A stretch of DNA of 64,000 nucleotides from a virus: positions 5,198 to 69,197 of the IMG/VR virus record IMGVR_UViG_3300010373_000006; one strand, written 5' to 3'. This document shows, in pieces, positions 6,621 to 64,000 of the stretch; positions within the stretch are counted from its first letter, which is position 1; every line of letters begins with the position of its first letter. The position numbers were made by a program, and so were the translations under genes. The notes under the pieces are model-generated. The model was not told where the DNA came from. It did not search any database and saw only the letters and a program-made list of their open reading frames with translations.

Positions 6621-6652
6621 TAGGCACTATGAAGAAAACCGAGGAGAAAATC

Positions 6653-10844: not shown

Positions 10845-11185
10845 CCACCCTCGCCGCCCAACTCGCCGCCGTCCGCGATCTGCTCCTCGAAGGCCGCCGC
10901 TGGGTGCGCACCAACGCCACCGAATGCCGGCGGAATCTCGCGGAAGCCGCCCAGCGGCTTGATAGCGTGATCTACAGTGACCTGACCGGGAATTTCCCCG
11001 TCGGAGGCCCCGAAACGCCCTACGCGGCCTTCTGTGCGATTCTGGAGCGAACCCGCGATAACCTGCTCGCGGGGGCTAAGTGCATCCTTGCGTGCCCGGC
11101 GGCGACGATAGGGGCGATCGATCTGGCGGCATGGGAGCTGGCGGTGGAGGTGGGGAGGATGGAGAGGGAGCCCGAGACGGAATGA
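10841..11185 (+). CDS. Hypothetical protein
   Basis: TTGA coupling; GGGAG RBS. Confidence 0.45.
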   Translation: MTTLAAQLAAVRDLLLEGRRWVRTNATECRRNLAEAAQRLDSVIYSDLTGNFPVGGPETPYAAFCAILERTRDNLLAGAKCILACPAATIGAIDLAAWELAVEVGRMEREPETE

Positions 11186-15921: not shown

Positions 15922-16154
15922 AGACGAATTACCTTAAACGGGTGGTCAAAGCCGAGTATCAACTCGCCGCCGCCCAGGAGCGGGAGCGGAGGCTGCGGGA
16001 AGCATGCGCGGACGCGCTAGAAGCCGTAGGCAGTGTCCCGATCAACGACAAAAACAAACGCGATCCCGACACCCTAGCGGCGCTGCATGCCTGCCTGATC
16101 TTGACTACCGCCCTGGCCGACGAACCCGCGAAAGGACCCAGCAATGCCCGATGA
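15918..16154 (+). CDS. Hypothetical protein
   Basis: ATGA coupling. Confidence 0.5.
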   Translation: MKTNYLKRVVKAEYQLAAAQERERRLREACADALEAVGSVPINDKNKRDPDTLAALHACLILTTALADEPAKGPSNAR

Positions 16155-16527
16155 ACCCCTGAAGCTTCTACCGTGCCCGTTCTGCGGTCACGACTCACCG
16201 GATTTCGAGCGGCTGGGCGATCGTCGTCAATCCTGCATCGTCGTGTGCGGGATGTGTGGTTGTCGGCACGAAAGCAGCGACGAAGGACGTTGGAACGGAT
16301 CGTCGTGGAACCGCCGCGTAAAGCCGTTGGAGACAAAAACAACCGTTCATTACGGCGTCCAGGAAAAGCGCAAGCACGACGAATCCGCGACGTGGGCGCG
16401 ATTCGTGGAATACGACACCCATAAAGCCGCCGTAGAAGAGATGACGCATCTCCGAAAACTGAATCCGATTGCGAAGGATTGGGATTTTCGCGTGGTCAAG
16501 ATCACGACGGAGGCATGCAATGAGTGA
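16144..16527 (+). CDS. Lar-family restriction alleviation-like protein
   Basis: LLPCPFCG...VCGMCG...WNRR. Confidence 0.7.
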   Translation: MPDEPLKLLPCPFCGHDSPDFERLGDRRQSCIVVCGMCGCRHESSDEGRWNGSSWNRRVKPLETKTTVHYGVQEKRKHDESATWARFVEYDTHKAAVEEMTHLRKLNPIAKDWDFRVVKITTEACNE

Positions 16528-17092
16528 ACCGCTGAGCCCCTGCCCCTGGTGCCCCAACGGCGGCGAGCCCGAAGTCTACCGCCCCATGCAGGTCGCGGCG
16601 ACGCATCGTTTCCATGTGCGGTGCAAGGCATGCGGTGCGATGGGGCCGTACACGGAAACGGACGGGCGCGAGGCCGCGATTGCGGGGTGGAACCGCCGTG
16701 CGGAGCCGATGCTGAGCGATGCCGTGGTGGATCAACTGATCACCCACGAGCCAGCGATGACACTCACGGCTAAGGCTGGGCGAACCCACACGACGCCCGA
16801 ACAATGGACGGCCATGATCGTGACGAAAACCGAGCGTGGCATGAGGTGGATGACCGATGGGTTTGCATCGCTGGCTGAAGCCCGCGCGGCCGTGCGGAAG
16901 GCGATGTTGGGAGAGACCGATACCACCAGGGCAGACCCGGTGGTCGAGAAAACACCAGGGGAGTCTCCCGCCGAGACGCTTGGGAAATTGCGAGCCGCGG
17001 CCCGAAAGGCCCTTGAGACCCTGGACCGCAGCGGCCTGGGTTTGAGCGCGGCCGCGTTCGACGAGCTTCGCGCGGCGGTGGCGGAAGGCTGA
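16520..17092 (+). CDS. Second Lar-like protein with C-terminal extension
   Basis: LSPCPWC...VRCKACGAMGP...AIAGWNRR. Confidence 0.65.
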   Translation: MSEPLSPCPWCPNGGEPEVYRPMQVAATHRFHVRCKACGAMGPYTETDGREAAIAGWNRRAEPMLSDAVVDQLITHEPAMTLTAKAGRTHTTPEQWTAMIVTKTERGMRWMTDGFASLAEARAAVRKAMLGETDTTRADPVVEKTPGESPAETLGKLRAAARKALETLDRSGLGLSAAAFDELRAAVAEG

Positions 17093-17113
17093 GCCGGGGA
17101 AGGGGGAGACGAC

Positions 17114-17800
17114 GTGAAGGTCTATCTTGCATCGCCGAATACGCAACAGCAGGCAGAGCACGCCGCCGATATGCCGGTGTTGCTCTCGTTTGCGTGCTAT
17201 TCGAGTTGGCAGGATAGATATCAGCAAACCTATTCCCGCATCCTGATCGACTCGGGCGCTTACTCGGAACTCAACAGCGGCAAGATGATCGAACTCCCGG
17301 CCTACATCGACTGGGCGGCGCGATGGACTGGCCACGCCGACGCCGTGGCAGGACTCGACGACATTCGCGGTGACTGGAAGCGGTCGCTTGCGAACTACGA
17401 GCGATTCCCCGGCGGGTTTCCCACCTTTCATGAGACCGACCCGCCCGAACTTCTGGATGAGTTGATCCCTATGGCTCGCGAGCGTGGCGGATGGCTGGGA
17501 ATCGGACTCTTACCGCCGCGCGAGGGAAAAGAGACGTGGGTTCGCGAAACGTGCTCTCGAATCCCCGACGACCTTCACGTTCACGGCTGGGCACTTAGGC
17601 GATACACGCACGTTCGGCGGCTCGATTCCGTCGATTCAACAAATTGGTGGCGCGATGCTATGAAACTGCGAACACTTCCGGACTTATCGCACCTGACGTA
17701 TGGTGAATGCCTTGAAATCGTCGTGAAGCGCTACCAGCGATGGGGGCGAGAGGTTCGCGAGTCCAAGGGAATGCCGCTTTTTGATGAGGTGGTATCATGA
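17114..17800 (+). CDS. TGT-fold DpdA-like 7-deazaguanine DNA transglycosylase candidate
   Basis: LIDSGAYS, LDDI, PTFH, HVHGW, DSVDSTNW motifs; coupled to queE. Confidence 0.65.
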   Translation: MKVYLASPNTQQQAEHAADMPVLLSFACYSSWQDRYQQTYSRILIDSGAYSELNSGKMIELPAYIDWAARWTGHADAVAGLDDIRGDWKRSLANYERFPGGFPTFHETDPPELLDELIPMARERGGWLGIGLLPPREGKETWVRETCSRIPDDLHVHGWALRRYTHVRRLDSVDSTNWWRDAMKLRTLPDLSHLTYGECLEIVVKRYQRWGREVRESKGMPLFDEVVS

Positions 17801-18432
17801 AGACCTACGCCGTGAAGGAAATGATCAAGACCCTCCAGGGCGAGGGCTTCCACGCGGGCCGCGCGGCGATCCTCTGCCGGTTCGCGGGCTGTAACCTCTG
17901 GTCGGGGCGTGAAAAGGATCGCGCCTCGGCCGTCTGTCGGTTCTGCGATACGGATTTCATCGGCGTCAACGGCGAGAACGGAGGGCGGTACACGGCGGCA
18001 ACGCTCGCATCGCGAGCTGCCGAATTATGGGGTAGCGATCGCACGCACCGTTTCATTTTTCTCACCGGCGGGGAACCGATGCTACAGGTCGATTCGGTGT
18101 TGATCGACGCGCTGCATCGCTTCGGATTCTTCGTACAGGTCGAGACCAACGGGACGCTGCCGGTGCCGCCCTGCCTGGATTGGATCACGGTGAGCCCGAA
18201 GGCTGGTGCCGAATTCAGGCAAATGAGCGGGCAGGAGTTGAAGTTGGTCTATCCGCAGGCCGGCGCGGAACCCGAGCGATACGCCGGATTGACAGGCTTC
18301 CGCGACTTCCTTTTGCAGCCGATGGATGGCCCGGCGAAAGAGGCGAACACGCGAGCGGCAATCGAGTATTGCTTGGCTCATCCGCAATGGAGGCTCAGCA
18401 CGCAAGTTCATAAACTGATCGGTGTGCGATAG
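17797..18432 (+). CDS. queE: 7-carboxy-7-deazaguanine synthase QueE (radical SAM)
   Basis: TLQGEG, RFAGCNLW...CRFCDT (CX14CX2C type), TGGEP, ETNGT, VSPK, WRLSTQVHK. Confidence 0.95.
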   Translation: MKTYAVKEMIKTLQGEGFHAGRAAILCRFAGCNLWSGREKDRASAVCRFCDTDFIGVNGENGGRYTAATLASRAAELWGSDRTHRFIFLTGGEPMLQVDSVLIDALHRFGFFVQVETNGTLPVPPCLDWITVSPKAGAEFRQMSGQELKLVYPQAGAEPERYAGLTGFRDFLLQPMDGPAKEANTRAAIEYCLAHPQWRLSTQVHKLIGVR

Positions 18433-19231: not shown

Positions 19232-19561
19232 ATGAGCATCGAGACGATCGTGATTCCGAAAGTGCTGACACCACGCGAAGCGTCTGAGCGATCCGGGATT
19301 TCGGTCGCGTCACTGGTGGCGTTCATTCGCGTGCATCGCTATCCGTTCACCGAACTCGTACCGGGCGGCAAGCCGGGAGACCGCGGGCGAGGCCGCTGGG
19401 GGCTTACTCTCGCGCAACTGGCGCACATCGTCGATAAGCAGGTCCGCAGGTTCGAGCCCCCGGCGACCTCGCCATCCGAGAAGCCGGAGCCATCGCTTGT
19501 ATCCCCGGATGGAAAGTCACGTCTTCGCGGGGGGCACAGGCGCCGATCCGGGACGCTTTGA
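19232..19561 (+). CDS. Putative excisionase / recombination directionality factor (HTH)
   Basis: LTPREASERSGIS HTH start; small, basic, convergent with the integrase. Confidence 0.5.
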   Translation: MSIETIVIPKVLTPREASERSGISVASLVAFIRVHRYPFTELVPGGKPGDRGRGRWGLTLAQLAHIVDKQVRRFEPPATSPSEKPEPSLVSPDGKSRLRGGHRRRSGTL

Positions 19562-20818
19562 CCGTCTAAAAAGTTTCTCAGCCGCAACCTGTAAATGGCT
19601 GTCGAGCAAGTGCCCGTAGTGCTTATAGATCATGTCGGGGGACGTGCCCGTTAGCTGAGCAACGGTCGCCACATCGACGCCGTGCATGAGCAGAGTCGAG
19701 ATTGCCGTGTGTCGCCAGCGGTAGTTCACGAGCCGGTTGTCGCCCTTGTCCTGGATGAGCACTTCCGCCAGTTTTCGTTCTGCGGAACGCACATCTTCTC
19801 CGCCCCGGATTCGCTCCCGAATACTTTCCTGCCGCGCGATCAACTCGGTTCGGATTCTCTTCACGGTAATCGAGAGTGTTGAGCCATCCTCCCACGGCTC
19901 GTTCATTCCGCGCCCGGCAAACCCGCCGTGGTGGACGAACACCCATTCGCTGTTGGGTGGCGTGCGGTCGAACACTCGCCGCAGAGCTCGGGAGAGCAGG
20001 GGGGAGAAGTAGATCGTTCGCGGCTTACCCGTCACCTTGCCGGCCTTCCATCGCCGGTAGGGGATGATCGCCTTGGCTGCCGAGTGTCCGGCCGGCGTCT
20101 GCCAGGCATTCCATTTGATGTCTTCCCATTTGAGCCGACAGAGTTCCTTGGGGCGGCATCCTGTGTTGATCAGGCAACGCTCGAGCAAGATCGTCAGCCG
20201 CTCGTACCGTGAGAGCGTGTAGGTTCGTGGCGTTCGTGTTCGCCAGTACCCGATGAACGCAGCCGCCTCGATGGTCTCGGCATGACGCTCGGGTGAGCGC
20301 GGAATCATCGGAGCTCTGTACCCTCGGATCGGGTTGTCTGCAATCAATCGCTGGGGAGCCTTCGCCGCCCAGTTGAATGCGGCCCGCGCTGACGCGCAGA
20401 CATTCCGGGCATATACCGGCGAGTAATCCGAGAGCAGGTCTTCGCCGAACGCGGTGACTTCCTCGGGGGAGACGGACGGCACCGGGCGCGTCCCGAACAC
20501 GTCGCAAAACATCCCCAGGTGCCGCTGTTTGTTTCGTTGTTCGGTGATCGAGTGTTTCCCTTCCTTGACCCGATCCTCGTACCACTTCAGGTAACGTTCA
20601 AACACCCAATCGACCGAGTTCTCGATCACGACGGGAACCACGTTATCGCGTCGGGCGCGTTCGGTCTTCAGCCATTCCCAGGCTGCTCCTTCATCCTTTT
20701 CGCCGATCGTTTCGGGGGCATAAACCTCGGTCGCGCGGCCCTTGGAATCGACCTCTCCAATGTTGGCGTACCAGCGTTTTTTTCCCTTGTGCCAACGCGC
20801 TCCAGCCTTGCGAGGCAT
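19517..20818 (-). CDS. int: Tyrosine recombinase (phage integrase)
   Basis: TGCRPKEL, K, YRWRH, LTGTS, HYGH catalytic motifs; N-terminal arm-binding region; GGAGG RBS. Confidence 0.92.
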   Translation of the reverse strand: MPRKAGARWHKGKKRWYANIGEVDSKGRATEVYAPETIGEKDEGAAWEWLKTERARRDNVVPVVIENSVDWVFERYLKWYEDRVKEGKHSITEQRNKQRHLGMFCDVFGTRPVPSVSPEEVTAFGEDLLSDYSPVYARNVCASARAAFNWAAKAPQRLIADNPIRGYRAPMIPRSPERHAETIEAAAFIGYWRTRTPRTYTLSRYERLTILLERCLINTGCRPKELCRLKWEDIKWNAWQTPAGHSAAKAIIPYRRWKAGKVTGKPRTIYFSPLLSRALRRVFDRTPPNSEWVFVHHGGFAGRGMNEPWEDGSTLSITVKRIRTELIARQESIRERIRGGEDVRSAERKLAEVLIQDKGDNRLVNYRWRHTAISTLLMHGVDVATVAQLTGTSPDMIYKHYGHLLDSHLQVAAEKLFRRSKRPGSAPVPPAKT

Positions 20819-20966
20819 CGGTTTTCCTCCGTTGAGGCCAGTCGTGCAACCCACCTAACTGTGTCGCCTATTAGCCATTTGGTCAAGCCGGAACGTCCGA
20901 TGGAACGTCTCGTAAGAACGTCTGATGGCAAACGAAGGGATTCGGTTTCGGCATTTGCGGCGCATT

Positions 20967-24074: not shown

Positions 24075-24103
24075 AATATACACCCTGTTCCATCATCCGT
24101 CAA
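24075..24103 (-). promoter_or_regulatory. Leftward sigma70 promoter with overlapping dyad
   Basis: Minus strand TTGACG (24098-24103), 17 bp, TATATT (24075-24080); CCGTC-N9-GACGG at 24097-24115. Confidence 0.7.
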
Positions 24104-24123
24104 CAGCGTAGACGGATAAAATA

Positions 24124-24375
24124 TCACTCGGCTGCGATTTCGGGGCGCAAGTCGATATCCTGCCCGAAGATAAAACTTCGGAAATTCTCTGGGTCGTCGC
24201 CCTTTTTCCGCTTCGGCGCACGCGAAATCAGGTCACGCACGGCCTGCCGGGCGACATGCGCCATGGGCATTCCGGCCCGTCGTGCGATATCGGCCAATGC
24301 GGCGTGCTCATCGTTGGTCAGGTCGAGGCGGACGGCCTTTGCGGCCGGCGCGCGTGCTGGGGTGCCCTTGGCCAT
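24124..24375 (-). CDS. CopG/RHH-family regulator
   Basis: AVRLDLTNDEHAALADIARRAGMPMAHVARQAVRDLI; AGGAG RBS. Confidence 0.75.
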   Translation of the reverse strand: MAKGTPARAPAAKAVRLDLTNDEHAALADIARRAGMPMAHVARQAVRDLISRAPKRKKGDDPENFRSFIFGQDIDLRPEIAAE

Positions 24376-24548
24376 TGAGTGTCGCTCCTGTGTGCGGGTG
24401 AGTGTGGACAGATGCCTATAGTGTATACGCTGTAGACGGAATCCGCAAGGCAACCCTCCGGAATCTCCGGATAGTTCCCTCCGTCCATCCCATTCTCGCA
24501 ATTATCACATCCCGTATCGGAAGAAATCTCTTGAATTGTCTCCCAAAT

Positions 24549-31649: not shown

Positions 31650-31839
31650 GGTTGTGAACGTATCAAACTATCGGTACACCGTGATAGATTTGTGCGATAA
31701 TATGGGTAATATGATACGACTAGGAAGGGCGAAAATCGGGGTGACGAAACCTCGTCATTCGCGTCATTTCAGCACACGATCATATCAACGAATGCGTATC
31801 AAATTGATAAAAAAACTCCGATTTCATGCGATTTTTTAT

Positions 31840-31888
31840 GGGTCCTTCCGCTTATGCGTTGCGAAGGACGTCGCACCGGGAACAGCCC
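31840..31888 (+). other. Candidate cos region (cosQ-like GGGTCCT plus dyad)
   Basis: GGGTCCT at 31840-31846 in an AT-rich gap just before the packaging genes; TGCGA-N6-TCGCA at 31860-31875. Confidence 0.35.
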
Positions 31889-31927
31889 ATTTATGCAATA
31901 CACTTTCTTTTTTTGAGCGTTTCGCCC

Positions 31928-33373
31928 TTGAGCCAAGCCAGCAAAGCCCGTCGTTCTGACGCCCGAAAACCCGCGCAAGATGAGCCCGTAAAGGCGCTTG
32001 CGCCCGTCTCGCGAGTCACGATCGACGCCCTGACGCCCGACCCCGCGAACCTCCGCAAGCACACCGATCGCAACGTCGCGGCGGTGGACGCCAGCGTGAA
32101 GCGTTTCGGTCCCGCACGCTCGATCGTGATCGACGAAAACGGCGTCGTTTGCGCCGGAAATCGCACGCTCGAAAGCGCCAAAGCGGCGGGTTTCACCGAT
32201 GTTTTGATCGTTGACCCCGAGCCGGGGCAGTTGGTCGCGGTGCGGCGCAAGGACTGGAGCCCCACCGAGGCGGTCGCGTACGGCATCGCGGACAACCGCT
32301 CGTCGGACCTCGGGGCGAACTCGTGGGAAGACGTGGCGCTGGCCGAGACGCTTCGGGCGATGCAGAGCGAGGCGTTCGATCTGGGAGCGGTCGGGTTTAC
32401 GGGGGACGAGGTTGACGAGCTGGTGAAGGGGCTGGGGAATGCGTTGGTGGGTGGTGAAGGGGGATCGAGCGGCGAAGACCAAGGCGCTCAGCACGACAAG
32501 GCCGACGAATTGCAGGCGAAGTGGGACGTGAAGACGGGCGACCTGTGGGTGATCCCGAGCAAGACCGGGAAGGGCGAACATCGACTGCTGTGCGGGGACT
32601 CGACGAAGGCGGAGGACGTGGCGAGGGTGATGGCGGGGGAGAAGGCGGACCTGTGCTTCACGAGCCCGCCCTACGGCCAGCAGCGCGATTACGAGAGTGG
32701 TGGTATCGGCGACTGGGATGCGCTCATGTGTGGCGTGTTCGGCAATCTGCCGATGGCGGACGCAGGGCAGGTGCTCGTCAACCTCGGGCTCATTCATCGG
32801 GACGGCGAGTGGATTCCGTACTGGGATGGGTGGATTCAATGGATGAGAGAGCAAGGATGGAGGCGGTTTGGGTGGTACGTGTGGGATCAAGGAAGCGGGT
32901 TGCCAGGCGACTGGAATGGCCGGCTTGCGCCATCGCATGAGTTCGTGTTTCACTTCAATCGGGAGCCAGTCAAACCCGAAAAAACTGTGGCCAAGAAACC
33001 GGAAAGCGTGCGAGATAGAACCGGCGACACCACCATGAGAGGCGACGATCCTGTCGGTCGAACATGGTCGTCCGGCGAAGCCTCGCTTCAGACTCATAAG
33101 GTTTCCGACAGCGTTATACGGGTTCAGCGGCAATGCGGCCCTGTGATGAAAGACACCCATCATCCGGCGGTTTACCCGGTAGGTTTCCCTGAATTCGCAA
33201 TGAAATCTTGGCCTGGTATTGCCTACGAGCCCTTCTCCGGTTCCGGAACTACCATCGTCGCCGCCGAGCAAACCGGTCGCCTCGCGAGAGGCATTGAGAT
33301 ATCGCCCAAGTACGTCGCCGTCGCCCTTGAACGGCTCGCCGGTCTCGGTCTCGAACCCCGCCGCGCATCATGA
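31928..33373 (+). CDS. ParB-like domain fused to an N6/N4 DNA methyltransferase
   Basis: PDPANLRKH...DENG...AGN (ParB); HRLLCGDST, FTSPPY, HPAVYP, EPFSGSGTT; start uncertain (ORF open from 31826). Confidence 0.85.
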   Translation: MSQASKARRSDARKPAQDEPVKALAPVSRVTIDALTPDPANLRKHTDRNVAAVDASVKRFGPARSIVIDENGVVCAGNRTLESAKAAGFTDVLIVDPEPGQLVAVRRKDWSPTEAVAYGIADNRSSDLGANSWEDVALAETLRAMQSEAFDLGAVGFTGDEVDELVKGLGNALVGGEGGSSGEDQGAQHDKADELQAKWDVKTGDLWVIPSKTGKGEHRLLCGDSTKAEDVARVMAGEKADLCFTSPPYGQQRDYESGGIGDWDALMCGVFGNLPMADAGQVLVNLGLIHRDGEWIPYWDGWIQWMREQGWRRFGWYVWDQGSGLPGDWNGRLAPSHEFVFHFNREPVKPEKTVAKKPESVRDRTGDTTMRGDDPVGRTWSSGEASLQTHKVSDSVIRVQRQCGPVMKDTHHPAVYPVGFPEFAMKSWPGIAYEPFSGSGTTIVAAEQTGRLARGIEISPKYVAVALERLAGLGLEPRRAS

Positions 33374-40210: not shown

Positions 40211-40471
40211 ATGGAGTCATTCATGAAGGTCACATTGACTACGAATCTCGGTCTCATCGACGCCAAACGGCTCGGAATCGGCGCCGCAATGGAGGGCGAC
40301 ACGATCGACGCTGACGACCCCTCTGCGGGCGAACTGATCAAGCGCGGCTGGGCCATTCCCGCCACCGCGAAGACCACCCCGGCAACCGCCGACATCAAGG
40401 CCGTCCCTCCGACCGGCGATCTGAAAAGCGCACCCAAGGGCGCGCCCACATCGGACAAGGGCCAGGCGTAA
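40211..40471 (+). CDS. Small head-module protein
   Basis: ELIKRGWAIP motif typical of small post-capsid proteins. Confidence 0.55.
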   Translation: MESFMKVTLTTNLGLIDAKRLGIGAAMEGDTIDADDPSAGELIKRGWAIPATAKTTPATADIKAVPPTGDLKSAPKGAPTSDKGQA

Positions 40472-41781
40472 TGCAAACACCCGAGTCCTCAGACCGCCGC
40501 CTGTTTCTCGCGATGCCCGGCTACGGAGAGATGACTGCCGGCGCCGCGCGCGGCTTCTGGCGATCGACCCGACTCCCGGACACTCACGTCTATTACGAGT
40601 ATCGCGAAGGATCGCTCCTCGCCGCGAACTTCAATAGCCTGTGGGTCTCCGCGCTGAATCGCGTCCATCGAGGCCAGCGCGTCGATTACTTCGCGATGCA
40701 ACACGCGGACGTTGAGCCACAGGACTGGTGGCTCGATACGCTCATCGACGAACTCGAATCCAGGGATCTTGATATCCTCGGATGCGTCGTGCCGATCAAG
40801 GACACTCGCGGCACGACGTCGCTCGCCTTGGCACGCGATGACGGCGATGACTGGCGGCCACTGTGCCGGTTGACGATGGAGGAGGTATACCGTCTGCCGC
40901 CGACGTTCACGAGCGACGATACCGGCCATCCGCTCCTACTCAACACCGGCCTTTGGGTCTGTCGGTTCGATCCGTCGTGGGTCACGAAGGTTCACTTCAC
41001 GATCAACGATCGCATTGTCCAGGAGCGTTCGACGGGCGAATATCGCGCGCAGACCGAGCCCGAGGACTGGTACTTCTCCCGGCTCTGCCACGAGCTCAAG
41101 CTCCGCGTTGGCGCCACGCGGAAAATCATATTGACGCACCGCGGGGCTGCATCGTTCACGAATGTTCGCCCCTGGGGTGAGTCCTACGATTCGGCCTGGG
41201 TGGATGAGAGTCCTATCCCGGACGATCTTCCCGGCTTCGCGTTTCCCTTCGATGTGGCCGGCTGGCTCCATCCCGAGGAGGGTCGACAACTCGCGCGGCT
41301 CGCGTCCGGTAAGCGAGTGCTTGAGATCGGCTCATACTGCGGCGCCTCGACGATCTGCCTCGCGCAGACCGCTGCCAGCGTCGTCACGGTTGATCCGCAC
41401 GACGGACGAGCGACTCCGGTCCCGCAACCGACGCTGGAAAACTTGACCAACAATCTCGCGCGCTTTGGTGTGGCGGATCGGGTCGAAATCTGCGTCGGCA
41501 CGTTTGCCGAATGGTCAGTATCGCTGAAGGAAGCATGTTTCGATTTGATATTCATCGACGGCGCGCACGACGCCGATTCGGTCGCCGCCGATATCGCGTG
41601 CTCCCTCGATTTGCTTGCACCGGGCGGCACCCTCGTGTTTCACGACTACCGCTCGAACGAGCCCGCAGTTACAGCCGCCGTCGATGATCTGATCGCATCG
41701 GGCGGTGAACTGGTCTCCGCCTGTTCGTCTCTGGCCGTGGTTCGACCCCCGGCCTCGGTTTCTTTACCCCTGGAGGTCTGA
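40471..41781 (+). CDS. Glycosyltransferase-like domain fused to a class I SAM methyltransferase (Methyltransf_24-like)
   Basis: HAD, EDWYFS (GT-A-like); VLEIGSYCGAST, DLIFIDGAHD, GGTLVFHDY. Confidence 0.75.
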   Translation: MQTPESSDRRLFLAMPGYGEMTAGAARGFWRSTRLPDTHVYYEYREGSLLAANFNSLWVSALNRVHRGQRVDYFAMQHADVEPQDWWLDTLIDELESRDLDILGCVVPIKDTRGTTSLALARDDGDDWRPLCRLTMEEVYRLPPTFTSDDTGHPLLLNTGLWVCRFDPSWVTKVHFTINDRIVQERSTGEYRAQTEPEDWYFSRLCHELKLRVGATRKIILTHRGAASFTNVRPWGESYDSAWVDESPIPDDLPGFAFPFDVAGWLHPEEGRQLARLASGKRVLEIGSYCGASTICLAQTAASVVTVDPHDGRATPVPQPTLENLTNNLARFGVADRVEICVGTFAEWSVSLKEACFDLIFIDGAHDADSVAADIACSLDLLAPGGTLVFHDYRSNEPAVTAAVDDLIASGGELVSACSSLAVVRPPASVSLPLEV

Positions 41782-56946: not shown

Positions 56947-57773
56947 TGCCAGAAATTCGCGGAATCACCATCGCCGTAGGCGCGCCCTACGCGTTCACGC
57001 TCGGGATCTGCCTGCCGCGCAACATGCGGCACTTCTCGGAGTGCACTGTGGTCACGACGCCCGACGACCACGCGGTGAAGGCCGTTGCGTCGAAGGTGCC
57101 CGGCGTGCGTGTCGTTGAGACGGATGAGTTTTTCGCGCATGGCGCGAAGTTCAACAAGGGGCTCGCGATGGAGCGCGGGTTTTCCGAAATGGGTCGACAT
57201 GGATGGATCTGGATATGGGACGCCGACTGTCTGTTTCCGGACTTCGTCCCATTCGAGCGTCTCCAGTTCGGCAAGCTTCACGGCTGCCGCCGCCGCATCC
57301 TTCAAGACCCGCGACGCTGGCATACTGGGCTTCCGTGGTCCGCGTGTCCGCCGTGCCGCAACGAAGGGCCGATCGGGTTCACGCAAATCTTTCATGCCGA
57401 CGACCCGGTCGTCAAGGATCGGCAGCCCTGGTACGACGTGAGTTTCGGCCACGCAGGCGGAGGGGACGCGGCGTTTTTGCGGCACTGGACGGGCGATAAA
57501 CATGTCGCGTTGCCGATGGACGTACTGCATCTCGGTCCGCGCGACACGAATTGGTTCGGGACCGACGAAGCGTCACGTCAACTTATGTCGGAATTTGTCG
57601 TGCGTAATCGCTGGACGAAGCGACGACCAGAACTGAACGGCAAGCACCCTGACGAATCCGTGTCGATCCCGCATCGTGTTCACGTTCCCGGCTACGGGAT
57701 CAGCGATTTCGAGTTGCCATTCGTCCGTCACCGACAGCAAGCGGAACAGACGTCGATTACCACTGCACCCTGA
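56943..57773 (+). CDS. GT-A-like glycosyltransferase
   Basis: FNKG, WDAD (DxD), GFTQIFH, VLHLG. Confidence 0.65.
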   Translation: MMPEIRGITIAVGAPYAFTLGICLPRNMRHFSECTVVTTPDDHAVKAVASKVPGVRVVETDEFFAHGAKFNKGLAMERGFSEMGRHGWIWIWDADCLFPDFVPFERLQFGKLHGCRRRILQDPRRWHTGLPWSACPPCRNEGPIGFTQIFHADDPVVKDRQPWYDVSFGHAGGGDAAFLRHWTGDKHVALPMDVLHLGPRDTNWFGTDEASRQLMSEFVVRNRWTKRRPELNGKHPDESVSIPHRVHVPGYGISDFELPFVRHRQQAEQTSITTAP

Positions 57774-58014
57774 TTCGGCCCTGGCCTTTTCGCAGCGGCT
57801 CGTCTTGTGGGCCATGCACAGGAGTCCCGAGCTTGTGACTGCGCTCCCAGGTAAGACACATGCCGAAATTCATGAGCGGCCCTGCGTCGAGCAAGTAGAG
57901 CGCGCCAACCGTGAGCCAAAAGGCGAATCCACTGATCACGACGACAACGTGAAGAAACCGGCGTATCGACGACCATGTCTGCTTGTGCATGGGTTTGGGC
58001 TCCATAGAGAGCAT
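57757..58014 (-). CDS. Small membrane protein
   Basis: Central hydrophobic helix. Confidence 0.35.
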   Translation of the reverse strand: MLSMEPKPMHKQTWSSIRRFLHVVVVISGFAFWLTVGALYLLDAGPLMNFGMCLTWERSHKLGTPVHGPQDEPLRKGQGRIRVQW

Positions 58015-58092
58015 TCGGCCGGCTCGGGGTAATCTTTACGTCGCGATCTTTCGATTTCCGACTAACGCGATTTTATGGCAAGTGTAGCGCGC

Positions 58093-58121
58093 AAAAAAGC
58101 CCCTATCAAGGCGATAGGGGC
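58093..58121 (-). terminator. Intrinsic terminator for the leftward genes
   Basis: GCCCCTATC-N5-GATAGGGGC with T6 on the minus strand. Confidence 0.7.
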
Positions 58122-58371
58122 AAATTTGTGCGCGCACAAACCCGCCCCGGTCCCTCCCGAGACCGAGGCGTGATCGCGTCGATACCTCGTTCTCCTCCGT
58201 TCCGTTCAGTGCCCAACCCGCCGCGCTGCCCAGCGGAATGCGTAGCAGCCGACGACGAGCCAGGCGAAGATTTCCATTGCAAGGGTCAGGGAAAGGGCCT
58301 CCAAAAAGGGGAAGGGTCATCCGCAAGGCCCGGTCGGGGACGACCCGAGGGGCGCGGATGGGGTGGGCGGG

Positions 58372-58950
58372 TTAGGGGATGGTGGCTTTCGTGATGGCGG
58401 TGCGAAGTGTCGCGACTGCCATGTTGATATCGGCAGGAAACGTTGCGTTTTGGGTCAAAGCGGTAACAGCAGCTTGGCACGCCGCAAGCAGGTCAGGCGC
58501 GGCGACGATGAGCCTCGCTCTGCGGGTCCGCTCCTCATGCGGAACGCCGATATTCTTGGGCGGCGGACACTCTCGGCCTGTTGTCTTGGCAATTGCTGCT
58601 CTTGCGCTGTTCCAGAGCGTCACGCACTCTTCGGACATGTCCTCCGGGTCGTAGAATGCGTCCTCGCACTGGGAGACATATTCTTTGGCGATCGCAAGCA
58701 GATCGGGACTCGCCGCGATGAGCCGGGCGTTTGCTTCGCATTCCTCAGTTGAGCGTGCGAACATGTCGCCATCGGTCTGGCAGATGCTCCAGTCGTCGTG
58801 GCAGTTGTCGCCGAATTCCTCCAGGTCTTCCGGCGTTGCAATGCGTGCCTCGAGTGGGTGAAGGAAAGAGTTGATTTTGACGTTCACGCGGCATGGTGCT
58901 TTGCCGCTAACTTCCCACGGTCCCGGCGTATGCTCTGCCATCGTCATCAC
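58372..58950 (-). CDS. Phage protein of the HTPGPW...ANARLIAAAPDLL type
   Basis: HTPGPW start; ARLIAASPDLL and ARLIVAAPDLL repeated. Confidence 0.7.
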   Translation of the reverse strand: MMTMAEHTPGPWEVSGKAPCRVNVKINSFLHPLEARIATPEDLEEFGDNCHDDWSICQTDGDMFARSTEECEANARLIAASPDLLAIAKEYVSQCEDAFYDPEDMSEECVTLWNSARAAIAKTTGRECPPPKNIGVPHEERTRRARLIVAAPDLLAACQAAVTALTQNATFPADINMAVATLRTAITKATIP

Positions 58951-59019
58951 TCCCCCTCATCAAAAGGTTGCGGGCTCGTCCGTGAGCCCTGGCTTGCGTC
59001 TGTCTACGGGTGCCGTTGG

Positions 59020-59382
59020 TCAGACCAAAAACAACAGTGTGCCACACTTTGAGCAGAAACGCGGACCGTGTCCCTTGTGGCGGCCCGACTGAATCACCTG
59101 GGATTCGTTGATCGGCGCCTCACAGCAATGGGAAAGCCCCCGCTTGAGCAGATCGTATTTCCGGGACTCTTCGGCTTTCGAGGCGGCGAGTTGCTCAGCC
59201 GTAGGGTACTCGCACTTGGCGCACGTCGCGCCAGAGATGTTGTACTTGCGCAGGCATGGAAAGGACTTGCCCATGCCAGGAGGCTCGTTCGGCACAAGGA
59301 TCGTCTCGTATACCACTCCGGCGTCACAGGTCTTGTTGCTCAGCCCATTGAAGTGGTTGCATCGGCCTTCTCTTGCGATCAT
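59020..59382 (-). CDS. Cys-rich hypothetical protein
   Basis: Multiple Cys motifs, CSKCG. Confidence 0.55.
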   Translation of the reverse strand: MIAREGRCNHFNGLSNKTCDAGVVYETILVPNEPPGMGKSFPCLRKYNISGATCAKCEYPTAEQLAASKAEESRKYDLLKRGLSHCCEAPINESQVIQSGRHKGHGPRFCSKCGTLLFLV

Positions 59383-59602
59383 CGGTCCCCCGCGATTCGA
59401 GTTCTTTCCGGACGGATTCTGTGATGAATCGCGCTGAGTCTTCCTGTAGGCTCAGAGCCAGCGCTTCGCATGCTCTGTCAACCGTCACGCCATTGTGCCC
59501 GCGAACCTCCAGCCATACGGCCAGAAGTTCGTTCAAAGCACCGTGTAGATGCTCTTTGACCCGAACGCTTTCCGGGTCGTGAATTGCTTCCAGTTTCATC
59601 AT
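59324..59602 (-). CDS. Hypothetical protein
   Basis: GGGAGAGG RBS. Confidence 0.45.
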   Translation of the reverse strand: MMKLEAIHDPESVRVKEHLHGALNELLAVWLEVRGHNGVTVDRACEALALSLQEDSARFITESVRKELESRGTDDRKRRPMQPLQWAEQQDL

Positions 59603-59672
59603 CCTCTCCCATTCTCCCCGCGGCCAGCCGTGTCATGCTCACGACGGGCCGCGGGGTGTGTTGGTAGTATGG

Positions 59673-60119
59673 TCAATTCCGTGTCGGCGTCGTCTCGCCA
59701 TCGGCTTGGAGCACCCAAGACGAATCCATGTAACTCATATAGACTCGCGTCTGTCCGAGAAATCGCCCGAGATGGGAAGCCATTGCGTTGAGCGCGTCGA
59801 TCACTTCGCTGTCGGTCAAATGGGCAGCGTACAGAACCGACACTTCGCCGCTGTAAGCGATGGCCGGCTCAAAGCACCCATGAGCAACACTATCGCCATC
59901 GCGATAGGCGTAGACCACATCGCCAACCGCCGACACGACGCCAGGCAAAAACGGCTCGCCGCTCTGGGCTCTCGCCCGGAGGTAAGATGCGACCTCCAAG
60001 CAGACATCCTCACGCTTGCAAGGCTCAGCGGAACCGCCGTAGCCTTGCACCAACCCCAAGGTGATCGCGAACGACCGCTTGACGAGAGTCGGTGCCGAAA
60101 CTTGCGAATAACTCATCAT
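59673..60119 (-). CDS. Hypothetical protein
   Basis: GGGGAGAG RBS; globular composition. Confidence 0.6.
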   Translation of the reverse strand: MMSYSQVSAPTLVKRSFAITLGLVQGYGGSAEPCKREDVCLEVASYLRARAQSGEPFLPGVVSAVGDVVYAYRDGDSVAHGCFEPAIAYSGEVSVLYAAHLTDSEVIDALNAMASHLGRFLGQTRVYMSYMDSSWVLQADGETTPTRN

Positions 60120-60215
60120 TCTCTCCCCAGTGTAAGCGGGGCCTCCAAGCCCCTGGCATGGTTCAGTACGGTTGCAGTCCCTTCGGGAATCCGGTCATCA
60201 GGGCGACGGGCGTGA

Positions 60216-60464
60216 TCAGACGCTCGCCGCCCCGCTTCGTTTCTCGGGGGCCGGATCGACCGGCACGAATACCGAACAGCTATCCTTACTCGGCTCGCCG
60301 AGGCGGACGTTCCACCGGTCGGTAATCTCGCCGAGCGATGCGTAGCGATAACCGAAGGATGCCCATCCTTTCTCCGGCGTATTCATCAGCCACCAAGAGC
60401 CTTGGCTGTCGAGCCGGGCAACCGTGGCCTGAAACAGAGTGCGGCGAACGGTCGTCGTTGCCAT
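60216..60464 (-). CDS. Hypothetical protein
   Basis: AAGGGG RBS. Confidence 0.55.
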   Translation of the reverse strand: MATTTVRRTLFQATVARLDSQGSWWLMNTPEKGWASFGYRYASLGEITDRWNVRLGEPSKDSCSVFVPVDPAPEKRSGAASV

Positions 60465-60809
60465 CGTCGTCTTTCCCCTTGCGTCTCGTGTCGTGATCCC
60501 GGCTCACTCGCCTCGTAGCAGCCTCACCACCTGCTCCAGCACCCACTCGTCCTCGCACGCATCGCACAGCTCGCTGGCCGTGCGCTGGAGATCCGCGAGG
60601 TAGTCTTCGCGAACCGCTTCGGCGGTCCCGAGGTCGAGTTCGGCCTGCAACCGGGTCGCCACACCGAGGGCCTGTCGTTCGGTCCGGCAGGACTCGTGAT
60701 AGTGGCCGTCGGAGTCGACGACGTGCCAGGAGTAGCCGTCGAGGCAGGCTTCGTAGCGGACGCGGAATTCGCGGAGGGGTTGCGGGCCGTCCTTGGCCCT
60801 GGGTGAAGG

Positions 60810-60974
60810 TCAGGCATTTTTCCCGATCAGCATCCGAGCAATTGCGTTGACGTGCTCTCTCGCCCACTCCTCGTTGCTCGGTAGTAGTTTGACGCCATTG
60901 ACCTCTTCGCCTCGCAGGGCAGCCTGAAGGGATTCCATTTCTTTCGTCAGTTGCTTGCGGGTCGTCACGGTCAT
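60810..60974 (-). CDS. Small hypothetical protein (54 aa; not in ORF track)
   Basis: GGAG RBS; MTVTTRKQLTKEMESLQAAL...; first gene after the leftward promoter. Confidence 0.5.
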   Translation of the reverse strand: MTVTTRKQLTKEMESLQAALRGEEVNGVKLLPSNEEWAREHVNAIARMLIGKNA

Positions 60975-61020
60975 CGTCTCGGCTCCGGTCGGGGTGGTTT
61001 GCGTCTGCCTTACACTATGG

Positions 61021-61049
61021 ATTATAGCACTCGTCTATGTACGGGTCAA
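61021..61049 (-). promoter_or_regulatory. Leftward sigma70 promoter
   Basis: Minus strand TTGACC (61044-61049), 17 bp, TATAAT (61021-61026). Confidence 0.75.
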
Positions 61050-61119
61050 GAGCACAAGATCGAAAATCTTTGCTATCTGAAAAGTTTTCGCTCGGGCACT
61101 CTCCTTATTGACCAGTCTC

Positions 61120-61148
61120 TTGACGTCGTGGACGGCGTTGTCTACACT
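61120..61148 (+). promoter_or_regulatory. Rightward promoter of the HTH-cas12 operon
   Basis: TTGACG (61120-61125), 17 bp, TACACT (61143-61148). Confidence 0.7.
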
Positions 61149-61204
61149 ATAGGAAGTCGATAACCTGGCAAGAGAGATTCCCTCCCGTTGCCAGGAGTCA
61201 GACG

Positions 61205-61462
61205 ATGCCGGAATCGAGGAAACGCCGCGTGCCGATGGGTGAAACGCTCGAAAAGAATCTGGTTCGCCTCGGATGGGCGAGCACGAAAGTTCGTGTGTCC
61301 GAAATCGCGAAGGCGGTGGAAGACCGAACAGGGAAGTCAGTTACCAAACAGCGGATTTCCGGCCTTTTGAACGCGATCTTTATCGAGTCCAAAACCATCA
61401 AGTGGTTGGCCGAAGGGCTCGGGGTGAAGCCAGAGGAATTGACCAAAGAGGAACCAAAGTAA
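61205..61462 (+). CDS. XRE/Cro-like HTH regulator coupled to the Cas12 gene
   Basis: VSEIAKAV...VTKQRISGLLN...TIKWLAEGLGVKPEEL; AGGAG RBS; TAATG overlap with the next ATG. Confidence 0.75.
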   Translation: MPESRKRRVPMGETLEKNLVRLGWASTKVRVSEIAKAVEDRTGKSVTKQRISGLLNAIFIESKTIKWLAEGLGVKPEELTKEEPK

Positions 61463-63474
61463 TGGCCTTCGGCAACGTCGCGAAACCTAGCCGGATCTAC
61501 ACGCACAAGAGCCGCCCCCCGCACGAGGGTGCGCAGCTCGCGAGCGACCAACTCTACCGTGCACACCAGTACGCCAACGCGCTGATCGAGACCGAGCGCC
61601 AACGCTGGAACGCGACCCAGGATCTCATGCGGTCGATGTTCCCGCGCATCGCGGAACTCGAAGCCCGGATCGACGCAATCAACGCGGCGATCGAGGCCAA
61701 AAACGCAGCCGTCAAGCACCAGAATCAGGCCGCTCGATCACGCACTGCGACAGCTGAGGACCGCGCTGAGGTCAAGCAACTCCAGAGCGAACGGCGCGAT
61801 GCAGCCAAGGAGCTCACCGCCGAACGCCACCGCCAAACCGGAGTCCCCAAGCCTCGCAAGGAAGCCTGGGAGCGAATTCACGCGGTCATCAACGCCACGA
61901 CGCGCGACGAGAAGGAACGCAAGGCACTGCGCAAGGCTGCGCAGGCGGCCATCGACGCGGGCGAATCGCCGGCCCCGCTGACCGCCGAAGAGGACCGCGA
62001 GGCGTTCGGTGATCCTGAATACCGCCGACGACGCGCGGCGATTGACGAGACCGCCAACGCGGATCGGCGGGCCAAGCGCGCGGTGTGCGAGGTTTACTGG
62101 GGAACGTACCTTTGCGTCGAGGGGGCGGTCGACAAGTCGGTGGAGGATTGCGCCAAAGGGCAACCGGTACGCAATGGCAAGCCTCCGGTTCCACCGGGAC
62201 CGCCCCGATTCCGGCGCTGGTCGCCCGAGGGGAAACTCGGCGTGCAACTTCAGGGCGGTCTGTCCTGGCTCGATGCGCTGGCGGGAACCGATTCACGGCT
62301 CCGGATCGAACTCCAACCACTTGCGGCGCGGCCGACCGTGAGCAAGTCGGGCAAGCCCTTGCCTCTGGCTGATCCGAATTCGCGGCGGTCGCGCGAGAAT
62401 AGCCAGGTCGTCGTCTGGGCGCGGATCGGCACTGAGGAGGATGGGCGTTCGCCAATCTGGATGAAGACCGTGGCGCACCTTCATCGCCACCCACCGGCTG
62501 ACGCCGTGATCAAATGGGTCTACCTCCAGCGCAACCTCAAGGGTGTGCAAACGTGGTGGGAGGCTCAGTTTGTCTTCGAGCGCGAAGAGGGCTGGGCCAA
62601 GGATCGCGAGACCCTGCGCGGGGAGGCCGCGATTGACCTGGGGTGGCGCAAGGTCGCTGACGGCTTGCGCGTCGCTGTGCTGATTGACGACGACGGCGAG
62701 CGGATGGAATGCGTACTGCCGGATTCCTGGCTTGAATCGTGGGCCAAGGCGCAATCAATCCAGGGGTTCCGCGACACGGAGTTCGACGCGATTCGCCCGG
62801 CGCTGGTGCACTGGCTCAAGGCGCGGCGGGAGGCCGGTACGCTCCCGGAATGGCTCGGGGAGGCAACCGGGAGCCTACATCAGTGGAAGTCCTGCGAACG
62901 GCTCGGGAAGGTCGTCTGGCAATGGAAGGACCAGCGATTTGACGGCGACGAGGCGATGTTCGAGCGTCTGGTCGAGTGGCGGAATCGCGACCGGCACCTG
63001 CACAATTACGCGCGTGGGATGGAAGAAACCGCCGTACGGCGTCGCGACGAGCATTACCACCGCTGGGCGGCCCTGGTGCGGCGGCGGTATGCGTTGGTGA
63101 AGGTGGAGGATACCAACTGGCGTGAGATGCAGCACCGACCCGAGGCGACGGACGACGGCAAGAATGCGACGATCGGCGCGTTCCGCTGTGCGGCGGTCGG
63201 ACGGTTGCTCGAAACGATACAAGAGCACGTATGGAACGTGGTCGCCGTTGAACCGGCCTGGACGACGAAGACCTGCCACGCTTGCGGGCATGTTGATGAT
63301 TTCGACTCCGCGAAGGAACTCGTCCACACATGCTCGGCGTGCGGGGAAATCTGGGATCAAGACGACAACGCGGCGCGCGGCCTGCTGAAAGGCCGCGTGC
63401 TCAAGTGGCTGACGCGGGAGGGACGGAAACTACCCAAGGCGGAGCGTGTACGGGATGTTGAGGCGGCGGTGTAA
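61462..63474 (+). CDS. cas12m: Type V CRISPR effector, Cas12m (V-U1)-like, ~670 aa, RuvC D-E-D intact
   Basis: N-terminal coiled coil; YWGTY, RFRRW..EGKLGVQLQ, HRHPPADA, IDLGWR (RuvC-I), VEDT (RuvC-II), CHACG/CSACG Zn ribbon, DQDDNAA (RuvC-III); adjacent CRISPR array. Confidence 0.8.
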   Translation: MAFGNVAKPSRIYTHKSRPPHEGAQLASDQLYRAHQYANALIETERQRWNATQDLMRSMFPRIAELEARIDAINAAIEAKNAAVKHQNQAARSRTATAEDRAEVKQLQSERRDAAKELTAERHRQTGVPKPRKEAWERIHAVINATTRDEKERKALRKAAQAAIDAGESPAPLTAEEDREAFGDPEYRRRRAAIDETANADRRAKRAVCEVYWGTYLCVEGAVDKSVEDCAKGQPVRNGKPPVPPGPPRFRRWSPEGKLGVQLQGGLSWLDALAGTDSRLRIELQPLAARPTVSKSGKPLPLADPNSRRSRENSQVVVWARIGTEEDGRSPIWMKTVAHLHRHPPADAVIKWVYLQRNLKGVQTWWEAQFVFEREEGWAKDRETLRGEAAIDLGWRKVADGLRVAVLIDDDGERMECVLPDSWLESWAKAQSIQGFRDTEFDAIRPALVHWLKARREAGTLPEWLGEATGSLHQWKSCERLGKVVWQWKDQRFDGDEAMFERLVEWRNRDRHLHNYARGMEETAVRRRDEHYHRWAALVRRRYALVKVEDTNWREMQHRPEATDDGKNATIGAFRCAAVGRLLETIQEHVWNVVAVEPAWTTKTCHACGHVDDFDSAKELVHTCSACGEIWDQDDNAARGLLKGRVLKWLTREGRKLPKAERVRDVEAAV

Positions 63475-63659
63475 GGTGTCACGCGAGCGGCGACGTGGCG
63501 CGAAAATCCCGGGCGCCGCTCGCGTGGTGTAAATTGGTGGATGGCAATGGGGTTACGGAATGTGGCTTGGAAGGAAAGGAGGATCGGGAGGATGGAACGT
63601 GCGGCCTCTCGCAAACCGGCGTATAATCGGGTGCGGGGAAAGGGGTTATGAGGGGTGCT
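63475..63659 (+). promoter_or_regulatory. CRISPR leader
   Basis: 185-bp non-coding gap; TATAAT at 63622-63627, 32 bp upstream of repeat 1; no clear -35. Confidence 0.6.
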
Positions 63660-64000
63660 GTGTAATGCCCGGCAGAAGGCTTTGGATTCTGCGACGGTGG
63701 GGCCTTGCGTGTTGCCGCAGTCTCCAAGACGAGTGTAATGCCCGGCAGAAGGCTTTGGATTCTGCGACATCGTGTCGGAGGTCAGGGCCGAGTCGAGGAC
63801 TGGGTGTGTAATGCCCGGCAGAAGGCTTTGGATTCTGCGACGTGTCCTGGTGGGGTGTGGCTCTTCCGGGTTGCAACGTGTAATGCCCGGCAGAAGGCTT
63901 TGGATTCTGCGACTGTGATGTGGGTCTAAGATGCATGGAGCCCTTCTCTGTGTAATGCCCGGCAGAAGGCTTTGGATTCTGCGACCCGGAGTAGAGGTCG
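63660..64000 (+). CRISPR. CRISPR array: at least 5 identical 36-bp repeats, truncated by window end
   Basis: GTGTAATGCCCGGCAGAAGGCTTTGGATTCTGCGAC at 63660, 63733, 63806, 63878 and 63950; unique spacers of 37, 37, 36 and 36 nt plus a partial fifth; internal GCAGAA/TTCTGC stem. Confidence 0.98.

Follow-up and report, generated by a model that had tools for sequence, protein, structure and literature searches.

The stretch of DNA considered here, a window of 64,000 nucleotides that spans bases 5198-69197 of the 69,197-bp IMG/VR record IMGVR_UViG_3300010373_000006, covers most of what appears to be the circular, ~69-kb genome of a soil temperate siphophage. The window encodes a type V-M CRISPR cassette in which the gene for the effector, Cas12m, is directly preceded by a gene for a small helix-turn-helix (HTH) protein of the Cro/C1 type. 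Gene order and sequence motifs suggest a regulatory link between the two genes. The cassette is probably self-contained cargo of the phage, and a single transcript initiated at a rightward promoter, denoted P_cas, would most likely take in the HTH gene and cas12m together with the array. The HTH protein, in turn, would most likely be the cassette's own transcription regulator with a site in or near P_cas, and possibly also in the divergent leftward promoter, P_L; its binding would set the level or the timing of Cas12m production, in the manner of the controller (C) proteins of restriction-modification (R-M) systems, which govern the nuclease gene that follows them. To this reading, namely that the cassette is regulated by its own HTH protein and is carried as cargo rather than being the main lysis-lysogeny switch of the phage, we assign about an even chance of being correct. 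The components of the cassette are the following.

61205..61462, + strand: HTH gene of the Cro/C1 (XRE) type, 85 aa, assigned through the HTH_3 matches of its relatives and a predicted five-helix model
61462..63474, + strand: cas12m, 670 aa, with D392/E549/D634 and a Cys4 zinc ribbon present
63475..63659, + strand: leader between cas12m and the array, with no promoter-like or plus-strand terminator-like site in the scan
63660..64000, + strand: CRISPR array with a repeat of 36 nt, five copies of which fall within the window; the array runs on across the record junction

The probable HTH-cas12m operon and the CRISPR array

The two genes appear to form a tightly packed operon behind its own sigma-70-like promoter, a conclusion that is well supported by the overlap of the genes, the Shine-Dalgarno sequences of both, the promoter and terminator scan and the composition of the upstream gap. 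The overlap had already been noted in the first-pass annotation of this DNA and is indeed present: the TAA that ends the 61205-61462 open reading frame (ORF) and the cas12m ATG at position 61462 are joined in TAATG (61460-61464). A GGAG Shine-Dalgarno sequence is located 8 nt upstream of the HTH ATG and GAGGAA is found 9-14 nt upstream of the cas12m ATG, the latter start being in agreement with the N-terminal consensus of the Cas12m family. No promoter-like or terminator-like site was detected on the plus strand from the HTH start (61205) to the array in a consensus scan, and the GC content drops to 0.44-0.48 in the gap upstream of the HTH gene (60975-61204), compared to ~0.61 in the window.

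The Cas12 assignment of the first-pass annotation can be narrowed to Cas12m given that the 670-aa protein matches the Cas12m structure 23vw_A in the PDB (E 9e-58, residues 227-642) as well as the PADLOC Cas12u1 profile (5.6e-68) and the Pfam family Cas12f1-like_TNB (3.9e-10). A search of 5.8 billion sequences yielded 73 proteins at E<=1e-3, including the protein from the window itself; the closest of the others shows 41% BLASTP identity, and most of the relatives are shorter (about 540-610 aa). The residues D392, E549 and D634, the last of which we take to be the RuvC-III residue on the basis of the motif, are all retained, so that this protein is a D/E/D-type Cas12m and not one of the H-D-D type to which the studied Cas12m2 belongs. 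According to the accessible passages of the respective reports, the binding of Cas12m effectors to DNA blocks transcription or replication (PMC10442227, PMC11013384); the D/E/D-type proteins of clades 3 and 4 are said there to have a mechanism that 'could' differ, whereas the binding-only mechanism of the H-D-D type has been solved (PMC10442227). Binding-only action is thus not assured for the D/E/D-type protein encoded here.

The array begins 186 nt after the cas12m stop and consists of 10 repeats and 9 spacers, with the last two repeats degenerate. The 66-bp terminal repeat of the record (window 63935-64000, identical to record 1-66) falls within the array and comprises one CRISPR repeat together with 15 nt of unique spacer sequence on each side, so that the genome is most simply a circle of ~69.1 kb; this overlap is consistent with a true circle, although spacers could have been dropped in assembly. 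A six-frame search of the complete record with the cas1 and cas2 profiles (PF01867, PF09827) gave 0 matches, with cas4 not included in the search, whereas in control genomes these profiles matched in 7 and 6 of 14. None of the spacers has a target within the genome itself at up to 11 mismatches, neither half of the array gives a match at E<=1 among 50,697 phage records, and the 24 nt at the beginning of spacer 1 and of spacer 2 have no exact match in IMG/VR. Directly past the array, and possibly in the same transcript, lies a gene for a cpYpsA (SLOG) protein (record coordinates L049:481-948; Pfam 6e-32), and a CsrA homolog is encoded further downstream (L049:4892-5113; 1.4e-12).

The 85-aa HTH protein

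By itself, the 85-aa protein shows no significant match in Pfam, PHROGs, NCBIfam or PADLOC, the best Pfam hit (E 0.021) being below the cut-off. An exhaustive profile search of 1.84 billion representatives, in contrast, detected 60 relatives at E<=1e-3, with E values down to 4.8e-26, whereas a word-indexed search returned a single relative (P0002), which is encoded on a 1196-bp contig; a search for a short N-terminal piece of Cas12m that could be located on this contig came back empty, which makes P0002 uninformative with regard to linkage. When 57 aligned relatives were compared to Pfam, HTH_3 was identified in 32, the Cro/C1-type HTH_26 in 23 and HTH_31 in 12 (best E 1.6e-9). In 15 of these 57 family members (P0087, P0097-P0105 and others), the protein carries an N-terminal fusion to a MUG113/T5orf172 (GIY-YIG-like) domain, and one JGI member of the family is named VapI-type antidote protein. 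The AlphaFold2 model of the protein (mean confidence, pLDDT, 83.6) contains five helices (residues 11-21, 31-42, 48-55, 62-72 and 76-80). Nearly all of the PDB matches listed by Foldseek for this model are XRE-type proteins, among them TP901-1 CI, lambda cI, C.AhdI, C.BclI, 434 and P22 c2, with probability ~1.0 and template-modeling (TM) scores of 0.5-0.58 but with E>=0.011; its neighbors in the ESM Atlas belong to HTH_26 and HTH_3 clusters. The identification of the protein as a Cro/C1-type HTH is therefore supported by the Pfam matches of the relatives and by the predicted fold, and the earlier label of an XRE-like HTH appears correct on these grounds, although the protein's own Pfam scan does not sustain it.

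No close relatives of the HTH protein were found in IMG/VR or in the JGI metagenome contigs, and further scans of IMG/VR with an alignment of seven HTH sequences and with two JGI-derived relatives were negative as well. Across 301 genomes of the phylum to which G002 (Schlesneria; the source of L052) belongs, nothing matches the HTH profile at E<=1e-5, whereas the profile recovers the phage itself at 6.5e-37.

Promoters, repeats and dyads upstream of the HTH gene

The 230-bp non-coding gap 60975-61204 contains the elements listed below.

61021..61049, - strand: leftward promoter-like site P_L; TTGACC (61049-61044), 17 nt, TATAAT (61026-61021), with TG before the -10; 11/12 consensus matches
61120..61148, + strand: rightward promoter-like site P_cas; TTGACG (61120-61125), 17 nt, TACACT (61143-61148); 9/12 consensus matches
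61011..61018, + strand: TACACTAT, copy 1, over the predicted P_L start (placed from the position of the -10) and without a -35 upstream
61143..61150, + strand: TACACTAT, copy 2, which includes the P_cas -10
24425-24418, - strand: TACACTAT, copy 3, outside the gap, the -10 of another promoter-like site
61143..61153, + strand: TACACTATAGG, the P_cas -10 and start region; the identical 11-mer is found at 24425-24415 (-)
61061..61090: imperfect AT-rich dyad (CGAAAATCTTT ... AAAGTTTTCG) in the interval from one -35 element to the other, a candidate UP element or operator
61123..61138: dyad ACGTCGT-gg-ACGGCGT within the P_cas spacer, a putative operator for autorepression
61156..61203 (arms 61164-61172 and 61187-61195), + strand: stem-loop in the 5' untranslated region (UTR) in which the Shine-Dalgarno sequence of the HTH gene, GGAG, is base-paired

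The divergent, back-to-back promoters described in the first-pass annotation, TTGACC-17-TATAAT on the minus strand and TTGACG-17-TACACT on the plus strand, were read at the positions given there, the leftward promoter being the stronger of the two, as were the two copies of TACACTAT that begin at 61011 and 61143. The number of promoter-like sites in the region 57000-64000 is not significant in itself (three in the consensus scan vs 1.4 +/- 1.2 in shuffles), with two of the three, P_L and P_cas, falling within this one gap and the third located at 58109. The -35 elements of P_L and P_cas are both preceded by CTC (CTCTTGAC; inverted repeat I4). The octamer TACACTAT is present in three copies in 64 kb against 0.12 expected, a number that was reached in 0 of 100 shuffles. 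The half-site of the AT-rich dyad is not repeated exactly anywhere else in the genome, and one copy with a single mismatch is located at 57382; the exact sequence of the dyad in the P_cas spacer is likewise unique in the genome, and two more copies, at 9044 and 49484, appear when up to 3 mismatches are allowed. The predicted hairpin of the HTH 5' UTR, folded from an assumed transcript start, has an energy of -21.4 kcal/mol (z -3.05), with 1 of 200 shuffles being as stable. Autoregulation by the HTH protein, which we infer to bind the DNA of this region, is a reasonable supposition from the gene order and these motifs, and in our estimate the case for it is evenly poised.

Repeated palindromic operators are absent from the gap, where the sole repeat is the non-palindromic TACACTAT, present twice; a C-box pair as found with R-M controllers was not recognized at P_cas either, the only dyads seen being one 7-2-7 with a mismatch and the AT-rich one. 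Two other interpretations of the motifs were discarded. The 11-mer TACACTATAGG, in our judgment, resembles the cores of T7/SP6 promoters. A reading of it as a promoter of this type was rejected given that no ORF of the size, or with the annotation, of an RNA polymerase is found among the 46 large ORFs scanned. The copy of TACACTAT at 61011 was rejected as a second rightward promoter because the -35 element is absent.

Other cas12m loci

Additional cas12m loci were gathered from IMG/VR (38 loci, 31 of them distinct; L009-L046), JGI metagenomes (2) and GTDB genomes (8), and all ORFs of at least 40 aa in the 38 viral, the 2 metagenomic and 7 of the genomic loci (L057 was left out) were scanned with phmmer for members of the HTH family. 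Two of the loci show a design that is similar to the one described here. L014 is an unrelated 43.5-kb viral contig that encodes a Cas12m with 30% identity. Here, the back-to-back promoters TTGACA-17-TATATT (+) and TTGACA-17-TACATT (-), with no other promoter-like site in 3.7 kb, precede a gene that matches HTH_3 (E 4.1e-5). Next come an ORF of 94 aa that overlaps this gene by 4 nt and, after 1 nt, cas12m; the array that comes last has at least 4 repeats. In L050, a Gemmatimonadales metagenome-assembled genome, a ribbon-helix-helix (RHH) gene (DUF6290, 1.3e-6) overlaps cas12m by 4 nt and is divergent from its upstream neighbor. Thus, three non-homologous small DNA-binding proteins head cas12m operons that have their own upstream gap, which is the best support obtained here for a cassette-level regulator. 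The survey of gene neighborhoods that the first-pass annotation called for thus shows no conserved HTH-cas12m pair in 47 loci; what recurs, in L014 and L050, is the design, with non-homologous binders. In another of the loci (L047:1229-3265), a 678-aa Cas12m relative is encoded just after a fragment of a terminase gene, and the cysteines of its C-terminal zinc ribbon appear to be replaced, as judged by eye from the translation.

A number of observations, from the survey and from the gap itself, weigh against a dedicated regulator of the cassette. The HTH family gives no phmmer match at E<=10 in the 47 other cas12m loci and was not found with the profile at E<=1e-5 in 5 genomes that carry cas12m. 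Among the same-strand ORFs located within 800 nt upstream of cas12m in 27 viral loci, only 1 of 73 matches an HTH family at E<=1e-3, namely that of L014 (weak matches only, E 0.01-0.04, are seen in L009), and no annotated regulator directly precedes cas12m in 3 plasmid loci. The overlap of stop and start codons is ordinary packing: cas12m abuts the upstream same-strand ORF in 15 of the 30 loci in which its start could be placed, in 9 of these by a 4-nt overlap, and the upstream ORFs are varied and mostly of unknown kind. The gap shows no pair of palindromes that would clearly qualify as operators; its best dyad is the 7-2-7 one with its one mismatch in GC-rich DNA, and TACACTAT, which is non-palindromic, also occurs in a promoter at a distance of 37 kb. 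Finally, no RNA runs that contain the stretch are listed, the sole containing run being soil-metagenome DNA, probably that from which the sequence came.

Leftward genes, shared motifs and a probable second regulatory region

Three further regions bear on the role of the P_L/P_cas gap.

60504..60974, - strand: first leftward coding region, consisting of a 54-aa ORF (60810-60974), an in-frame TGA and then ~100 GC3-rich codons (rich in GC at third positions)
24415..24448, - strand: promoter-like site of the leftward block that runs from an RHH-like gene to the integrase; TTGCGG, 17 nt, TACACTATAGG; below the scan threshold (3/6 in the -35)
Record L049:1870-2641, outside the window: minus-strand gene for an XRE repressor-like protein of 143 aa (HTH_31, 5.7e-6), a divergent promoter and an RHH-like ORF

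The ORF that is first in the leftward direction contains no detectable family or DNA-binding domain in Pfam, PHROGs or NCBIfam, and its read-through product, with X at the stop, has no family match. The ~100 codons past the TGA lack an ATG, GTG or TTG start. The in-frame TGA could be read through, could have arisen by a nonsense mutation not long ago or could be an error of the assembly.

The gene order past the array includes, after the cpYpsA/SLOG gene, two small ORFs, terminator-like hairpins (genome 1865-1990, +) that lie between the cassette and the downstream genes, and the 143-aa XRE gene, upon which the cassette converges. HTH_3 matches this gene and just one other in the genome; the region in which it is located lies 1.5-2.2 kb past the array. 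The promoter divergent from it (TTGATT-17-TATAGT) is associated with two copies of TGTCCAA and has the palindrome CCAACAGGTTGG in its spacer; the small ORF that follows reads, by eye, as an RHH protein. Neither TGTCCAA nor CCAACAGGTTGG is found in 60975-61204. The region 1870-2641 is likely to be the immunity switch of the phage, more canonical than the P_L/P_cas gap, and the Cas12m cassette would thus sit beside it like independently promoted cargo. Cargo genes expressed in the lysogen often adjoin the immunity region.

The leftward block that shares TACACTATAGG with P_cas starts with an RHH-like gene (24127-24375, read by eye) and runs toward the integrase. Another motif, GAGATTCC, has four copies in the genome, all non-coding: at window position 61174, in the HTH 5' UTR; at record position 437, 25 nt past the last CRISPR repeat; at window 24467 (-), just upstream of the -35 of the other TACACTATAGG promoter; and at window 10939 (-), in another gap. 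Three of the four are followed, after 4-6 nt, by TTGC[CG], and GAGATTCC-N6-TTGCC is present both in the P_cas region and at the TACACTATAGG promoter of the leftward block. The occurrence of TACACTAT in a distant promoter can be accounted for by a broader regulon or just by a common kind of promoter; the shared blocks TACACTATAGG, TACACTAT and GAGATTCC, together with the 5' UTR hairpin, fit a wider regulon and a shared promoter type equally. Near the RHH-like gene, CCGTC[A/T]ACAGCGTA has exactly two copies in the genome, at window 24097-24110 (+) and 24439-24426 (-), one overlapping the -35 of TTGACG-17-TATATT and the other within the spacer of the TACACT promoter; these copies flank the gene 24127-24375 and are therefore candidate operators of the RHH-like protein.

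Alternative explanations

The first-pass annotation tied expression of the CRISPR module to the lysis-lysogeny decision. Under that scenario, the P_L/P_cas gap would be a developmental switch of the Cro or immunity type, the HTH protein would act as the Cro-like regulator of the phage, and the output of Cas12m and CRISPR RNA would follow the decision. Divergent back-to-back promoters with an HTH gene as the first rightward one are what such a switch would contain, the rightward path leads through the array and ~5 kb of small genes to the replication module (7376-9831), and the cassette lies 1.9 kb from, and is convergent with, a CI-like gene; the presence of TACACTATAGG in P_cas and in the promoter of the block leading toward the integrase, the placement of TACACTAT over the predicted P_L start and the occurrence of GAGATTCC-N6-TTGCC at both regions point in the same direction. 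However, the first leftward ORF has no detected DNA-binding domain, the gap lacks repeated palindromic operators, the terminator-like hairpins stand between the cassette and the downstream genes, the integrase is 40 kb distant, and a better CI/'Cro' pair, with operator-like repeats whose motifs are missing from the gap, is available at 1870-2641. The proposed link to lysis and lysogeny accordingly finds no support, and we regard this scenario as quite unlikely. A broader version appears distinctly improbable: Cas12m would act as a programmable repressor in phage development, and the HTH protein, or a factor that reads the shared blocks, would run the CRISPR and the lysogeny-establishment genes as one regulon. 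It is suggested by the sharing of TACACTATAGG and GAGATTCC-N6-TTGCC with the promoter of the integrase block and by the position of TACACTAT on the P_L start; on this view, and with the same low probability, the HTH- and RHH-led cassettes elsewhere would represent the same solution reached several times.

It is also conceivable, albeit unlikely, that the two genes are co-transcribed without any dedicated control, the HTH protein serving the phage as a regulator in general or acting on targets elsewhere, for example, the TACACTATAGG promoters. On this explanation, cas12m would simply have been inserted behind the HTH gene in a packed phage operon, and the pairing would have no CRISPR-specific logic. 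The tight packing of cas12m with unrelated upstream ORFs in half of the loci (15/30), the absence of the HTH family from every other cas12m locus examined and the motif in common with a distant promoter are all compatible with this, as are the 15/57 family members fused to MUG113/T5orf172, which point to general phage roles, and the VapI-type antidote name of a JGI member; the independent emergence of HTH- or RHH-led cas12m operons with a divergent gap of their own in L014 and L050 and the confinement of the candidate operator dyads, as exact sequences, to the P_cas region argue in the opposite direction. That the HTH protein is an accessory subunit of Cas12m, for example, one that aids target DNA binding or silencing and is held at a fixed ratio by translational coupling, seems highly improbable. 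Apart from the overlap of stop and start, this idea can draw only on the action of Cas12m through DNA binding and transcriptional silencing, as described in the accessible passages of PMC10442227 and PMC11013384; the effectors characterized there act alone, the HTH protein does not co-occur with Cas12m in the other loci examined, and its predicted fold is that of a plain Cro/C1 domain.

Relationship to known systems

The cassette shares with known type V-M systems a compact Cas12m, an adjacent array, the lack of cas1 and cas2, and carriage by a mobile element, and differs from them in the longer, 670-aa effector with at most 41% identity, the D/E/D rather than H-D-D RuvC residues and the coupled HTH gene upstream. 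A close parallel is MvCas12m of the myxophage MV-1, which was reported as the first phage Cas12m in a September 2026 preprint (bioRxiv 10.64898/2026.09.14.751636). To the extent that the available passages of the preprint describe it, that system resembles the present one in the phage-borne Cas12m, the small array (8 spacers there and 9 here), the absence of adaptation genes, the retention of the RuvC D/E/D residues and the failure to find protospacers; in contrast to the present cassette, no regulator gene is described in those main-text passages. A 2024 review already mentions type V-M in prophages, which is at variance with the preprint's claim to be the first, and the legend to its Figure 2A (legend text only) includes a 'transcription regulator' among the genes of type IV and V-M plasmid loci (PMC11656645). 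No description of an HTH-led type V-M operon was found in the portion of the Cas12m literature covered, with supplements outside this coverage.

The R-M controller proteins C.AhdI (PDB 1y7y) and C.BclI (2b5a), both among the Foldseek matches of the HTH model, offer a regulatory analogy: a small Cro/C1-type HTH gene comes first, is co-oriented with and overlaps the effector gene, and the module resides in a mobile element. Controller proteins are autoregulated and delay the expression of the effector. The differences are that no C-box pair was recognized here, that membership in the controller family is not detectable at the sequence level and that the effector is RNA-guided. With the lambda CI/Cro switch, the gap shares the back-to-back divergent promoters, a rightward gene series that opens with a small HTH gene of the Cro/C1 type, and the temperate phage setting; it lacks, however, a repressor gene on the opposing side, tripartite palindromic operators and an integrase next to it. 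Small DNA-binding repressors next to Cas12- or TnpB-family genes in mobile elements are also known, at least from the passages available, in the case of CvkR, a MerR-type repressor of the type V-K CRISPR-associated transposon (PMC9938897), and of the Arc RHH repressors in IS605/TnpB elements (bioRxiv 10.64898/2026.09.24.754181), which the RHH-cas12m pair of L050 resembles. Those repressors have MerR and RHH folds as opposed to Cro/C1 and belong to transposons rather than a phage.

Gene content of the phage

The assignment to temperate siphophages is based on the PHROG matches, which include DnaB, methyltransferases, the large terminase, portal, a capsid-protease fusion, tape measure and an integrase (19517-20854, -); the replication module combines DnaB with a DnaD-like loader. 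The genome is also rich in DNA-modification and anti-restriction genes (window 6629-7366, 11080-12591, 16144-18432, 31826-33373 and 40471-41781), which encode a Mom-like protein, several DNA methyltransferases, one of them a ParB-like fusion, a Lar-like protein, and tgt-like and QueE-like proteins of the 7-deazaguanine pathway.

Implications

In the cases that have been studied, Cas12m silences its targets rather than cutting them, and reports of copies carried by phages have only begun to appear. The 38 IMG/VR loci (31 distinct) that encode Cas12m relatives show that viral contigs with Cas12m are no rarity and that its carriage by phages is much more common than the claim of a first phage Cas12m implies, which corrects that claim. 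If small Cro/C1 or RHH proteins are indeed built-in controllers of these cassettes, such cassettes would provide compact self-regulating parts for Cas12m-based gene circuits, and the presence of these controllers would explain how, upon entry, a phage or plasmid prevents an RNA-guided DNA-binding protein from doing damage to the element or to the host.

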